Assembly (NCBI GenBank): GCA_976551045.1
Contig: CDPCPM010000370.1
Location: 1,550,001-1,614,000, forward strand
Direction: 5' to 3'
From: Glaucostegus cemiculus
Taxonomy: Eukaryota
Length of the DNA stretch: 64,000 nt
Shown: piece by piece, positions 17,523 through 53,924 of the stretch
How positions within the stretch are numbered: the stretch's first letter is position 1
Layout: each line of letters starts with the position of its first letter
The notes under the pieces: model-generated
Told to the model about the DNA's origin: nothing
The model's database searches: none
The model's input: the letters and a program-made list of their open reading frames with translations, nothing else
Position numbers and translations under genes: made by a program

Positions 17523-17565
17523 ATGAGAATACTCTGGGTTTTCATCCTATGCTTCTATTTGCAGC
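17523..17565 (+). pseudogene. Leader exon of NAR-TCR V
   Basis: ATG...MRILWVFILCFYLQ, phase-1 donor GTGAG at 17566. Confidence 0.85.
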
Positions 17566-17656
17566 GTGAGTACTGCTCACACACGCTCATGCTGTATGAG
17601 TTTAATATTAAATCTGCCCGAACTATGCCGAATTTAAAACGCTGTCCCTGTTTTAG

Positions 17657-18008
17657 CCCCGATCCCTGTTTCGCCTATCTCTTTCAGTCAGTCGGTGACC
17701 CAGACCCCGACAGCGGTGAACAAGATGGAGTGTCATCTGTCACCATCACGTGTCATTTCCAGTCTGGGTCTAATGGTGAATACCGTTTACAAACTGGACA
17801 ATTCTTCAGGCAGGCGCAGGACGGAGCAGAGTGGCAGCGGATCACCAGCAGAGGACGGTTTTCTGTGCGGATTAAAAACACAGAGATGACATTTTCGTTG
17901 GATATTCGGGATTTGAAAGTTGAAGGCAGCGCCATCTATTACTGTCAAGCTGCGTACAAGTGGCGAGAAACACAGTGATGGGCCTAGGCTTCCCGAAGTA
18001 CAAAAACC
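17657..18008 (+). pseudogene. NAR-TCR V exon (1-nt frameshift) with 22-RSS
   Basis: Acceptor TTTTAG at 17656; PPIPVSPISFSQSVTQTPTAVNKMEC, frameshift near 17734, then SVTITCHFQ...FFRQAQDGAEWQRITSRGRFSVRIKNTEMTFSLDIRDLKVEGSAIYYCQAAY. Short C'/C'' region as in NAR V domains. RSS CACAGTG-22-ACAAAAACC (17971-18008). Confidence 0.85.
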
Positions 18009-18329
18009 TTCAATGCAGTTTCTCCCAGCAACAGATGAAGGAGCAGAGTGAGCCTGCGGTTAAGGCCACAGTCCCGCCTCGCACCTGCTGCTTCCCTGGC
18101 TGGGTGAAAAGATTGGGTTGTTGCAGTTAAAATCCTGGGTCTTCTCACTGCGTACTCTGCGCCATGGCGCCAGCTGTACTGACACTGTTGTCAATCAAAG
18201 GCTATAGGGAACGAATGAACCTGGTTCGGTATCCCCCATCTCCAGATGGGATCCTGTTTGAACAGCTAGAAATTGCAAGCGCAGTCGTGAGTGTTTAACT
18301 CCTGCAAGCCCGTTTTATCGAGTTCCAGG

Positions 18330-18401
18330 GGATTTGAAACTGACATCAGCTATTGTGTTAACTTGGGGAAATACACAGTAGAAGAGATCTGAGCACACAA
18401 T
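18330..18401 (+). other. NAR-TCR D segment (18358-18373) flanked by 12/12 RSS
   Basis: GGATTTGAA-12-TATTGTG [TTAACTTGGGGAAATA] CACAGTA-12-GCACACAAT; lies between the V and J. Nonamers are weak. Confidence 0.7.
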
Positions 18402-18706
18402 GCCTCAAGTTAAAATTTATATTCTCTGGGTTCGGAAACAATGATTATATGGTGATTTTTCACTCTCTGGCTAGGTAATTTCATTCTAATTTCACGCTTC
18501 CAGTCATTCTTTGCTTCACCCGTTTTCTGTGTTTGTCAATCGAGCTCAGTGCAATGATCGACCGCAATTTTACTGACGAGTTGCTTTCTCACAGGGAACA
18601 GGTCAATCTACTGTGGGAATTGTGGAATGTATCATGTGCTTTCCTGCAGACCGTCAAGTCTTCAGAAAGTATTGATGGTGTTTGCTGCGTAGAATGAGGT
18701 GAGGAT

Positions 18707-18805
18707 CGTTCTTGTACCTTGGAGACTAATAACGGGATCAGTGTGTGTATGTGTGGAAGACTTATTATGAAGATGGAGCAGGAACGACGTTAACTGTCAC
18801 AGAGA
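18707..18805 (+). other. NAR-TCR J segment (18746-18805) with 23-RSS
   Basis: CGTTCTTGT-23-CAGTGTG, then YVWKTYYEDGAGTTLTVTE and GTAAGT donor at 18806. G-x-G-T without the preceding W/F, as in NAR-type J. Confidence 0.85.
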
Positions 18806-20173
18806 GTAAGTATCTATAAACCTTGCCAAATTGTACGCTCTCGCCGGCAATCGTCAGTGTCATTTCATGTTCGGACCGATTGCCAACAGTTTCCTTTAAG
18901 GTGGTGCAGGCGTAATTTCTAAACAGGTATCTGCAAAGTGGTCCTGAGGAGACGTGGGGAACGCTACTGGCATCCGGGCGTGTGACTGGACAGCGGAGAT
19001 GTGGAACACATCGGGAATAGGCGTATTTGGGTTTCTTATCTGCTGGTGTTGTCAGCGATACCTGCAGCTCAGAAGATTAATAAATATGAAAATATAAACA
19101 GACGCACCTGAACAGAAGGGTGCAGAATAAGAGTCACGGGTTAATTCACAGAATGTGAAGGTGGTTTTCAAGTTCACAGGTAGCTATTTCTGAGGTGTGG
19201 GGCAGACGTACCGGTGTCAGTGTTGTTCACAGCGCAGCCAGATTGACTGGAGGTGCGAGCGGATGTCATGAGAGTTATGAACCTGTGAAATTGGTCAACA
19301 CTCACTAGGTATTAGAGGACTGAGTGTTTATCCCTTTATTATTTACAATCTGCAGCAGGGAAGTAACTGGCGAGCTTCTCCCTGTGAGTCCATCCGTTCC
19401 TCTTGTAGAAAGGGCAGAGAGTGAACCGAACCGGCAACTGACAGACTGTGAGAAAGGTTCTCTGCAGAGCAAGGGCTGAACCGCAGGCAGCAAAATGTGA
19501 GCGACCGAGATGCGGAATGATCACGAAACCAACTGTATCTTATTGAAATGAAACTAGGATGGAGAGATTCATATTCCATTCATTTTCTTTTAAGAAAAGC
19601 GAAAGGAGCAGTGTTTTTTTTATCGGCATATGTTAAAGTGCTCTTGAAGGTGAACCCTTGCTCCACAGATGATCAGTGTCCGCTTGAGTCAGTCATTGAA
19701 TTGTTTCGGATCTTGCAATGCACTGGGCTACAACAACAACAACAACAACAAAATAAAATGTCTGGAAAAATCTTCCATCACTAAGAGGAATACATGCTGA
19801 GGACAATATTTCTTCTGATTTGTCCTTCATTACGAGACATGATAACAGCTGTTGAAAAATAAATGACTGAGATTTGCAGAACAGAGAAATGTAATTCCGC
19901 CAATTTTCCGAGTACCTTCTCTGAATCTGTCCACCTTTTTAACTTCATATAGCTTCAAATTTCTCCAGATACGTTTCAATAATTGCAGATTTTCCCCATT
20001 GGCCATATGTCGTTGAGTTCCCTACCACAGCAATTTGAGAGAATCATTGACAATAGTTTGCCAAAATTTCAAATGAAGCGAAGCGTTTTAAAATGAAATC
20101 TCGTTTTGTTTGCAATGCTTTTGCAAACAATCATCGGGAAATCAGCAACAATAATCCCTTTGAATTCTTGCGG

Positions 20174-20514
20174 GTCCCATTTCCCCGGGGTCTAAAAGTC
20201 TTATTCTTCAATCTTCTGCTGGCGAAACAGTCACTTTGAGCTGAAAATATTCCGGGTTTTTTCCACACACTGTACACTGGTATCGTCATTTTCCAGCCCA
20301 GGCTGTCATATTCCTGCTCCAGAGACACACTTCAGGAGAGCAGGATACGAGAAAGGCGGATGGAGGACGAATTTCTGCGATCCTTGATCCTGGAAAGAAA
20401 GTCTGCCAATTAACAATCTCCAAAGTGCAACTGAGTGATGCGGCTGTGTATCACTGTGCACTAATTCACGCACAGCACAGTGATACATCACATTGGGTGA
20501 ACTTAACAAATACA
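20174..20514 (+). pseudogene. Leaderless supporting TCRdelta V of the NAR-TCR cassette, with 23-RSS
   Basis: SPISPGSKSLILQSSAGETVTLS*KYSGFFPHTVHWYRHFPAQAVIFLLQRHTSGEQ...GGRISAILDPGKKVCQLTISKVQLSDAAVYHCALIHAQ. TGA at the first Cys (20242), acceptor reads CGG, phase matches the J donor. RSS CACAGTG-23-ACAAATACA (20476-20514). Confidence 0.85.
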
Positions 20515-52214: not shown

Positions 52215-52301
52215 CGTTAGTCACAGTCACCATGGTGCCTCCTCCCCAGTAGTCAAGTTCGTCACAGTGTTACGTTTCATGGGCTCCGTCACACAGTAAC
52301 T
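52215..52301 (-). CDS. IGHJ: IgH J segment (52262-52215) with 23-RSS
   Basis: ELDYWGGGTMVTVTN, GTAAG donor; AGTTACTGT-23-CACTGTG upstream. Confidence 0.95.
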
Positions 52302-52630
52302 TCATCTTTAAGGAACAGACAGAAAGCAAAATATTCTTTAAATTCTCATATTTCAAATTTAAGAGGAAGCCAGTATTGCTGTTATAAACTATGGCTGGTT
52401 GAAGGAAACATTCCAACCGACAAAAAAAAAATGCAATGATGTGGTCTATCAGACAGGTACATGAAATGTGACTTCAATATTTTTGTCTAGATAAATGATA
52501 AGTTACCACCAATTACCCATGCACTAAACCTTGTTAAAGTTGCCTGGGCATAATTATGACTTCGTTGCTTGAACAATTGGATTCACATTTTGCACTATGA
52601 CCCAGAACCACACAATCAGCATCTGAGCTT

Positions 52631-52698
52631 CTTTATTGCATGGACGGGAACGGCAGTGCCATCCAGTATGCACAGTGACACACGCCATGTCCAATACC
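52631..52698 (-). other. IgH D2 segment (52670-52659, CATACTGGATGG) with 12/12 RSS
   Basis: GGTATTGGA-12-CACTGTG [D] CACTGCC-12-GCAATAAAG. Confidence 0.88.
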
Positions 52699-52987
52699 CT
52701 ACTGAATAATGATCAAGTCGAATCCCATCTCGCCCTGAGAATCATCATTTTGGCAGCGCTGACAGGGTGCACGGCTGGGATTTATCACCATGTACTGCTC
52801 ACTGCCACAGATTAAACAAACTATCGTCCGTCCGTCGCACATGTGAATTTGGCTGTAACAGCATCGACGACCGTTACATTTTTTGATGGTCTCATTTATT
52901 TCAGAGTGTTCCTTTATATTTAAAGCTCTTGCTCTCAGCATCTCCTGCCCTCCTGATAAGTTCAAAGAAGGGAAAATTAGTTGCCTG

Positions 52988-53067
52988 GGTTTTTGTACGG
53001 GAATCTGGCTGTTTGCAGCTCCGTGGCCCACTGTAGTAGCACAGTGAAGCGTATCGGAACAAAAACT
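52988..53067 (-). other. IgH D1 segment (53039-53026, CTACTACAGTGGGC) with 12/22 RSS
   Basis: AGTTTTTGT-12-CACTGTG [D] CACGGAG-22-ACAAAAACC. Confidence 0.93.
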
Positions 53068-53394
53068 ATACCGTCTGGTCAGGATCAGGGTTTGCTCAAA
53101 ACAAACACCATGCGGGTTTATAAATTCTCCAAAGATTCACAAATATCACTAATGATAAACGCAACTGTAATCTTCTCCCTGTATGCACCGCTTGCATTGA
53201 CCCGATCATATTATCCCATTCTGCCATTGTAATCAATGTTGATGTTACAGAGGAAATAAGGGCAAAATATCATATCAGTGTGGTAAGATATTGAATGGTT
53301 GTTAGTGCTCCCTTTTCAGGCAGTCATTGATGCCTTTAAAAGAATCATACTCAGCGTTAATTTATGATGGAAAATGATGGTATGACAATCATGC

Positions 53395-53736
53395 TGTTCT
53401 TCTACGGTCCAACCATGGATCCGCTCACCGTGTCTCTCGCACAATAATAGACGGCGGTGTCTTGCGTCCTCAGGTCCCTCACGTCCACGGAGAAAATGTT
53501 CTTTGAAGTGTCTTTAGACGGAATAAATCTGTTCCGAATCCCCGGGGCGTAGTACTGGTTCGAGGAATCATAGTATGCAAGCAGCCACTCCAGCCCCTTC
53601 CCGGGGACCTGTCGAACCAAGCTCATCCAGTTGCTGCTGAGAGAGAACCCGCTGGTTTTACAAGTCAGTATCAGAGAACCTCCAATTCTGGAGGTCTCTG
53701 CCTCCGGTTGAGTCAAAGTGACATCAGAATGGACAC
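53395..53736 (-). CDS. IGHV: IgM VH exon (53736-53433) with 22-RSS
   Basis: [53 protein letters not shown]...[15 protein letters not shown]...[19 protein letters not shown]-22-AGAAGAACA. Confidence 0.96.
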
Positions 53737-53878
53737 CTGTAAGTTTAATCGAAAAAAAGAGTATTAATCTTGGCTCAATGACTACTGCCTGTCTTATTTC
53801 TGAGAAAAATTACTGAGAGGAACAGAGGGCGACAAGGAAATAAGTGTCGTTCCGTAATTTATCCAAAGAATTACTCAC

Positions 53879-53924
53879 TGGAGAAGAACAACAAAAACAG
53901 GCTGAGTAAAGTCGCCGACCACAT
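53879..53924 (-). CDS. IGHV: IgM VH leader exon
   Basis: MWSATLLSLFLLFFS, 46 nt, GTGAGT donor. Confidence 0.93.

Follow-up and report, generated by a model that had tools for sequence, protein, structure and literature searches.

IgM miniclusters nested in the T-cell receptor alpha/delta V array of Glaucostegus cemiculus

Does a whole antibody heavy-chain gene lying 12 to 19 kb from T-cell receptor (TCR) segments mark a functional or ancestral unit, or is it the by-product of how a larger locus grew? The question was raised by a stretch of 64,000 nucleotides of Glaucostegus cemiculus DNA (the window), positions 1,550,001 to 1,614,000 of contig CDPCPM010000370.1 (C370; 3,070,252 bp), in which a sequence-only reading had seen an immunoglobulin M (IgM) gene beside TCR alpha/delta-type variable (V) segments and those of NAR-TCR, the doubly rearranging TCR delta. 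We consider it very probable that the window carries one of 17 IgM miniclusters located inside the TCR alpha/delta V array and that its broken TCR neighbours are likely to have been duplicated together with it. Kilobase figures given for C370 are contig positions; feature coordinates are those of the window.

Position of the IgM clusters within the TCR locus

The detailed map covered 170-2,210 kb and 50-70 kb of C370, and each genome search scored its best 150 candidates. The order along the contig was found to be Calpha (constant, C; 54 kb), Jalpha (joining, J), Cdelta (196-198 kb), Jdelta, two Ddelta (diversity, D; 229 kb), TCR V, an IgM-bearing array, and further TCR V to 3.0 Mb. The TCRdelta D/J/C and TCRalpha J/C, which were looked for on the contig of the window, were thus found at 229, 196-198, and ∼54 kb, and a V array, Ddelta-Jdelta-Cdelta, and Jalpha-Calpha occur on one contig, as mapped over 50-70 and 170-2,210 kb. 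The constant region of basking-shark gene model P0001 matched C370 at 196-198 kb and at 53.6 kb, both on the minus strand. The first match was preceded by nine J hits and two D segments flanked by recombination signals with 12-bp and 23-bp spacers (12-D-23), the second by J without D, and from this layout they were read as the putative Cdelta and Calpha, respectively.

Between 368 and 2038 kb, 17 IgM clusters were found amid at least 27 NAR-TCR cassettes and at least 53 TCR V. Whole-genome searches with Cmu4, Cmu1, and the transmembrane (TM) exons each returned 17 loci, all on C370 at 368-2,038 kb (an 18th TM match was a partial second match at one locus), and the next-best Cmu4 matches off this contig had 43-45% identity. 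NAR-V positions numbered 27 in the 170-2,210 kb map. A motif scan located 74 other TCR-type V, a lower bound since the scan misses frameshifted copies: 10 between Ddelta and the first IgM cluster, 53 among the clusters (42 of which combine an open frame and a CAC signal), and 11 past them. TCR V extended to 3.005 Mb, with 76 of the best 150 matches distal to the last IgM cluster by hand count. As TCR V lie on both sides of and among all 17 clusters, the IgM genes are nested inside the TCR alpha/delta V array, more than merely near it, and the mixed B/T-receptor locus proposed in the sequence-only reading is borne out across the contig.

The clusters (VH-Cmu1-4-TM, VH being the heavy-chain V) lie on the minus strand in 13 cases and on the plus strand in 4, with a spacing of 14-332 kb, often 42-87 kb. 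Cmu1-4 and TM1 were open in 15 of the 17 as far as aligned, Cmu2 being frameshifted at 1419 and 1468 kb; VH was frameshifted at 1468 and 1516 kb. At 1290-1326 kb, two clusters stand tail to tail, with Cmu4 exons 13.7 kb apart. Seven of the 17 clusters appear to be partly joined in the germline, as judged by missing signals and shortened intervals. By VH position, these are V-D1 and D2-J (743 and 1291 kb), V-D1 (1946 kb), D2-J (430 kb), and D1-D2 (381, 984, and 1481 kb).

Six VH-like segments (238, 260, 610, 1132, 1138, and 1191 kb) had no D, J, or C within 2.5 kb, and five of them carried a 23-bp signal. The last IgM cluster (2037 kb) has a divergent VH, with which those at 610-1191 kb grouped; no V lies closer to Ddelta than the segment at 238 kb. 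All six are candidates for TAILV or "Ig-TCRd V" segments. Elsewhere in the genome, contigs C97, C117, C165, C615, C628, C868, C900, C132, and C68 contained many immunoglobulin heavy-chain (IgH)-type constant exons with ∼42-45% identity to Cmu4, some forming long runs of near-identical domains; these are likely IgW and IgNAR clusters. Linkage to PSMB5 was not seen, with none of 25 proteasome matches on C370, a contig that ends 53 kb past Calpha and has no scaffolding.

The IgM gene and the TCR-type elements of the window

The minus strand of the window was found to hold one whole IgM gene, L-VH-D1-D2-JH-Cmu1-4-TM1-TM2, secretory tail included:

53879-53924, minus: IgM leader exon; phase 1, GT donor
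53433-53736 (53395-53736 with signal), minus: IgM VH exon; open, Leu at IMGT position 41, 71% identity to Triakis IgM VH
within 53395-53736, minus: VH signal; CACGGTG-22-AGAAGAACA
53026-53039 (52988-53067 with signals), minus: D1; 12-bp signal 5', 22-bp signal 3'
52659-52670 (52631-52698 with signals), minus: D2; 12/12 signals, the 3' one degenerate
52215-52262 (52215-52301 with signal), minus: JH; WGGG motif, 23-bp signal
46729-47025, minus: Cmu1; open, AG/GT
45476-45787, minus: Cmu2; open, spliced alignment
44907-45215, minus: Cmu3; open, spliced alignment
42261-42652, minus: Cmu4 and secretory tailpiece; the membrane form uses an internal donor after 42323, C1-set E value 2e-21
39790-39917, minus: TM1 exon; spliced alignment
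39648-39656, minus: TM2 exon; two codons and stop

The variable part is arranged as V-22, 12-D1-22, 12-D2-12, and 23-J inside 1.5 kb, with some degenerate signals, and the constant part comprises four mu-type exons, a secretory tail with its penultimate Cys, and TM1/TM2. Introns have AG/GT ends throughout and all splice sites are canonical, giving spliced constant regions of 436 (secreted) and 461 (membrane) codons with no internal stops. The exons were collinear with Triakis IgM (P0020) at 71, 54, 51, 66, and 74% identity in order, and the closest homologs were from batoids (77-79%). A decayed reverse-transcriptase fragment (PF00078, below cut-off) was noted on the minus strand in the JH-Cmu1 intron, at 48.4-49.2 kb of the window.

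Among the core VH residues, Cys23 and Cys104 are kept and Leu replaces Trp41, which touches the "functional" status of this V and not its IgM isotype. The V, D2-3', and J signals have three to four mismatches each; the VH signal is one base shorter than in the paralogs, and its nonamer, AGAAGAACA, is one change further from consensus. The gene described in the sequence-only reading as complete and intact is thus complete, with open exons and canonical splicing, while "intact" needs qualification for Leu41 and for the drifted VH and D2-3' signals. Position 41 is normally an invariant Trp in VH. On C370, it was replaced in 11 of the 17 IgM VH, by Leu in 10 (including the window, 53618-53620, minus strand) and by Phe in 1. 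The two shark VH that were retrieved keep Trp41, and searches for batoid VH gave only shark VH with Trp or distant matches.

The TCR-type elements of the window were found to be as follows:

12570-12890 (ends approximate), minus: TCR V alpha/delta pseudogene; in-frame stop, outside the studied region of 17523-53924
17523-18008 (leader 17523-17565), plus: NAR-TCR leader and NAR-V pseudogene; three-paralog alignment, tree
about 18358-18373, plus: NAR-TCR D; degenerate signals, paralog alignment
18746-18805, plus: NAR-TCR J; 23-bp signal, GT donor, paralog alignment
20174-20475 (signals to 20575), plus: NAR-TCR supporting V-delta pseudogene; two tandem 23-bp signals, at 20476 and 20537
22042-22370, minus: TCR V alpha/delta pseudogene; 31 bp duplicated in tandem, neither Cys present, non-CAC heptamer
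24913-25417, plus: TCR V alpha/delta with open frame; heptamer TACATTG, against CACATTG in both paralogs
27268-27560 (ends approximate), plus: remnant of a TCR V alpha/delta pseudogene, closest of the V to IgM; stops

The cassette shows the NAR-TCR layout: a V of the NAR type has a D and a J to itself, and a supporting V-delta that bears a 23-bp signal comes next. An IQ-TREE tree was built from 43 selected V rows, the reference rows being automatic gene models recognised as NAR-TCR by their V-J-V layout; in it, the NAR-V clustered with NAR-TCR-type V of catshark, basking shark, skate, and sawfish (100/98) and the supporting V with the second V domains of the same gene models (100/97). Searches of the PDB with the NAR-V fragment gave mixed nanobody, single-chain variable fragment (scFv), and VNAR matches, and its class was settled by the tree instead. 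For the V at 25 kb, TCR alpha/delta chains accounted for 59 of the best 60 PDB rows (the other was an scFv; two light-chain rows were set aside), with a best E value of 1e-10. Two candidates were dropped: a NAR-V without D or J, suggested by the first scan for recombination signals, was overturned when paralog alignment located both, and a minus-strand open reading frame at 18765-19076, considered as a V, runs antisense to the NAR J and the intron that follows.

All of the TCR-type elements (NAR-V, supporting V, and the V at 12.6, 22, 25, and 27 kb) were found to be defective. NAR-V carries two deletions, one of 37 bp in which the splice acceptor was lost and one of 1 bp that causes a frameshift, and a good 22-bp signal remains at 17971; the supporting V has TGA at the first Cys codon and appears to have lost its acceptor. 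The open frames and splice sites of a three-domain chain are thus wanting, and this cassette is a pseudogene member of its class. The V at 25 kb is likely unable to rearrange, given its heptamer. The identification of the left-hand V as TCR and NAR-TCR in the sequence-only reading was confirmed, as were its distances of ∼12 kb from TM2 to the nearest TCR V (the pseudo-V at 27.3-27.6 kb) and ∼19 kb from TM2 to the NAR-TCR cassette (the supporting-V signal). Its "convergent" arrangement describes the cassette and the V at 25 and 27 kb, all on the plus strand, but not the V at 12.6 and 22 kb, which share the IgM strand.

The second signal of the supporting V is a wider feature. A further 23-bp signal 59-63 bp beyond the first was seen in 14 of 22 NAR-TCR supporting V-delta, compared with 1 of 118 other V. 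The 14 sites are as follows:

20476-20575, plus: the window
543378, 558530, 635430, 905261, 929978, 1093398, and 1111207 on C370
1119733, 1161713, 1169759, 1233071, 1399112, and 1638487 on C370

In several intact-looking cassettes, the second signal was nearer consensus than the first. The doubling resembles a long-retained tandem duplication, and our guess is that it serves a two-step or second-chance join to Ddelta. In the cassettes at 781, 1351, 1397, and 1905 kb, the D/J interval was short or absent, and those at 781 and 1905 kb look germline V-D joined.

Duplication of the block and alternative explanations

The window from 16.3 to 53.9 kb, from before NAR-V to the IgM leader, was found to be collinear with two neighbouring blocks:

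16275-53924, no strand assigned: composite block of NAR-TCR, TCR V, and IgM; further copies at C370:1634-1679 kb and at C370:1716-1753 kb
32634-35553, minus: long interspersed nuclear element (LINE) retrotransposon insertion; ORF1 (open reading frame 1) with a GDSL esterase domain, lacking in the block's paralog at 1.73 Mb

The two paralogous blocks covered 36,686 of the 37,650 bases at 88.9% identity and 34,685 at 85.3%. Across the junction between TCR V and IgM (window 27.6-39.6 kb), they covered 11,102 and 9,122 of 12,048 bases, with steady offsets and with gaps that do not overlap. One paralog alignment of 15.5 kb spans 16.3-31.6 kb, and the next, at 35.6-40.6 kb, reaches the TM exons. A tree of Cmu sequences joined the window to the cluster on its right (95), and both fell in a clade made up of five clusters that lie side by side (97). 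The ratio of nonsynonymous to synonymous substitution rates (dN/dS) against the two paralogs was 0.31 and 0.20 for Cmu1-4 and TM1 (474 and 472 codons) and 0.77 and 1.17 for NAR-V and the supporting V (147 and 141 codons), and lesions were present in all three NAR-TCR cassettes of the blocks. The constant exons are therefore under purifying selection, and the NAR-TCR parts, judged on few codons, are near neutral. Selection would thus have worked on IgM copy number, with the cassette as a passenger, and a tandem duplication of ∼70-80 kb is likely to have copied the broken neighbours, NAR-TCR and TCR V, together with IgM.

These alignments bear directly on whether the IgM and TCR regions were misjoined at the repeats at 32-39 kb of the window. 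High-copy repeats do occupy 32.2-35.4 and 36.7-39.8 kb, where depth runs into the thousands, and no available read or contig crosses the junction. Two DNA contig sets of one sample (0.25 and 0.00 of words) over 24-43 kb gave short pieces, none of them spanning, and are evidence neither way; one skips 32633-35592, which fits an empty LINE site or a paralog. The LINE at 32.6-35.6 kb is presumably of the type labelled "CR1," and the putative Tc1 pieces at 38-39 kb gave no Pfam match, the Tc1 label resting on a motif. A misjoin is nevertheless extremely improbable. Because the junction is collinear in two blocks that are 11-15% diverged, one assembly error cannot explain three copies. In addition, the LINE is a clean insertion missing in one paralog, and all 17 IgM clusters are interleaved with TCR segments, an interleaving found also in other species. 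The contiguity on which the sequence-only reading depended is thus upheld. The linkage across the locus as a whole is old and shared with sharks, but the junction in the window is young.

It could also be supposed that NAR-TCR, TCR V, and IgM form a selected functional unit, with a shared enhancer or local VH/NAR-V exchange, or an ancestral relic. The block was duplicated whole at least twice, a plus-strand NAR-TCR precedes a minus-strand IgM also at 1397/1419, 1905/1936, and 2010/2023 kb, and the paralogous TCR V (1643 and 1725 kb) are intact. Such a unit is very unlikely, however, as all three cassettes are broken and evolve near neutrality, the intact-looking NAR-TCR cassettes are mostly at 540-1240 kb in runs without IgM, and the sister IgM clusters at 1516, 1791, and 1854 kb have no adjoining cassette. 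Since the neighbours are broken and behave as passengers of duplication, local adjacency is not the mechanism, and the weight that the sequence-only reading placed on the distance of 12-19 kb is not sustained: the neighbours are pseudogenes of a recent tandem duplication, and the partner that matters is Ddelta, at a distance of 1.37 Mb. More generally, IgM and NAR-TCR can come to lie close together as a by-product of tandem duplication, and an ancestral reading needs a paralog check.

The window IgM might instead be a young pseudogene or low-use copy, with open frames, a poorly folding VH (Leu41), and weak signals. Frameshifts in three sister clusters (1419, 1468, and 1516 kb) add to the Trp41 replacement and to the mismatches in the V, D2-3', and J signals. 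This is unlikely, although less so than the alternatives above, as Leu or Phe at position 41 is common to 11 of 17 VH across divergent clusters and hence is not private decay, the constant exons are under purifying selection, and the splice sites are all canonical.

The preferred reading, an IgM minicluster in a nested array with co-duplicated TCR passengers, has several points to its disadvantage. Use of the window VH with Cmu or Cdelta is a prediction from the germline sequence. Leu41, together with a V signal (nonamer AGAAGAACA, 22-bp spacer) and a D2-3' signal weaker than those of the paralogs, means that this IgM copy may be little used. The near-neutral dN/dS of NAR-TCR was based on few sites (11 and 8 synonymous differences), and NAR-V alone gave 0.46 against one paralog. 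The name Cdelta rests on the upstream D and on a match of 35% (77% for TM) to a gene model from basking shark instead of a curated TCR delta, and collapsed or unassembled IgM copies may exist elsewhere.

Predicted rearrangements and comparison with known systems

In B cells, VH-D1-D2-JH would be rearranged within 1.5 kb to give secreted or membrane IgM, as for elasmobranch miniclusters, in which B cells rearrange within the cluster according to PMC5192425. In thymocytes, the 22-bp signal of VH or the 3' 22-bp signal of D1 could pair with the 12-bp signal of Ddelta. The window VH lies 1,373,550 bp from Ddelta on the same contig and strand, and 22/23-bp and 12-bp signals are compatible. The prediction in the sequence-only reading that chimeras can be cis events is in line with this arrangement. 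A VH-Ddelta join by deletion would yield an IgHV-TCRdelta chimera with no interchromosomal step, and it would remove the 10 proximal IgM clusters as well as the window cluster's own constant region. By strand, the predicted join is deletional for 13 of the 17 clusters and inversional for 4. The NAR-TCR cassette of the window would contribute nothing. Judged from the germline layout, cis VH-Ddelta joining is likely to underlie the nurse shark chimeras.

A broader synthesis is offered tentatively, at somewhat less than even confidence. The "trans-rearrangements" of shark IgM VH would be plain intralocus joins. Deletional Valpha-Jalpha joins from ∼75 distal V would excise all 17 IgM genes per allele, as all of these lie inside the V array, and would act as a built-in lock between the T and B lineages. 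Adaptation to the shared locus may account for the Leu41 VH group and for the doubled signal. In mammals, TCRdelta is excised by Valpha-Jalpha joining.

A mixed locus has been in print since 2025, and IgM beside NAR-TCR will therefore not surprise specialists. C370 is a complete contiguous germline map, with which IgM VH use with Cdelta can be tested by distance and strand, as can IgM deletion in alpha-beta T cells, the opening of a single minicluster by B cells inside a T-cell locus, and TCRalpha somatic hypermutation as a consequence of a locus shared with IgM. In our literature search, which left most subscription papers outside, no published account was found of one contig on which the TCR alpha/delta V array encloses all detectable IgM of a species, of B and T segments duplicating as one block, of Trp41 replaced in 11 of 17 IgM VH, or of a second 23-bp signal after the supporting V-delta. 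The nested IgM array, the joint B/T block duplication, the Trp41 loss, and the doubled signal may be new points.

The mixed locus itself, which the sequence-only reading thought possibly undescribed, was already tabulated by Flajnik et al. in 2025 (PMC12227049), whose Table S1 places IgM genes among the NAR-TCR and TCR alpha/delta V of great white shark and Atlantic stingray. On great white chromosome 27, IgM at 8.945-8.964 Mb has a NAR-TCR VV 39 kb off, and NAR-TCR at 11.79 Mb has an IgM 42 kb off (PMC12227049). The stingray order on chromosome 26 is TCR V, IgM/NAR-TCR, Ig-TCRd V, Cdelta, and Calpha (PMC12227049, Table S1), and trans-rearrangements were held to be easily supported by IgH/TCR proximity (PMC12227049). 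The window is thus a new instance of a published arrangement. Like the elasmobranch AgRC described there, C370 has IgM, NAR-TCR V-V, and TCR alpha/delta V interleaved in both orientations upstream of Cdelta and Calpha. However, PMC12227049 lists automatic gene models with IgH "linked near" TCR alpha/delta, whereas C370 adds that all 17 detected IgM lie inside the V array of one 3.07-Mb contig and resolves the duplication unit at base level; IgW, IgNAR, and PSMB5 were not shown on C370.

As an elasmobranch IgM minicluster, the gene is typical in having one V, two D, and one J in ∼1.5 kb, along with four C exons, TM1/TM2, and a secretory tail, and some sister clusters are germline-joined, as in PMC5192425. 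It differs in that Trp41 is gone from VH in 11 of 17 clusters and in spacing, nurse shark clusters being 120 to >200 kb apart (PMC5192425), compared with often 42-87 kb here. The cassette follows NAR-TCR in its order of L, NAR-V, D, and J before a supporting V-delta with its own 23-bp signal, the three-domain concept being set out in PMC3457774 and PMC12227049. The differences are that the window copy is a pseudogene and that 14 of 22 supporting V on C370 have the second signal.

Chimeras of IgM/IgW V with TCR D-J-C are cited in PMC5931798 and PMC3457774, and those of nurse shark also in PMC12227049. For the nurse shark IgHV-TCRdelta chimeras, C370 would supply the germline setting, VH signals compatible with Ddelta on one contig, and its six lone VH-like segments resemble TAILV or "Ig-TCRd V." IgH material was reportedly placed by Deiss (2019) inside the nurse shark TCRdelta locus on bacterial artificial chromosomes, with which a citing sentence in PMC12227049 agrees, and IgH segments inside this locus were reportedly also described by Ott (2021). 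Close Ig/TCR linkage was already noted in elephant shark (PMC3964593). The VHdelta of frog, bird, and platypus TCR alpha/delta loci are antibody-type V used with Cdelta, according to PMC3457774. These are lone V genes, whereas the genes nested in the C370 array are IgM genes in full, C and TM exons included.

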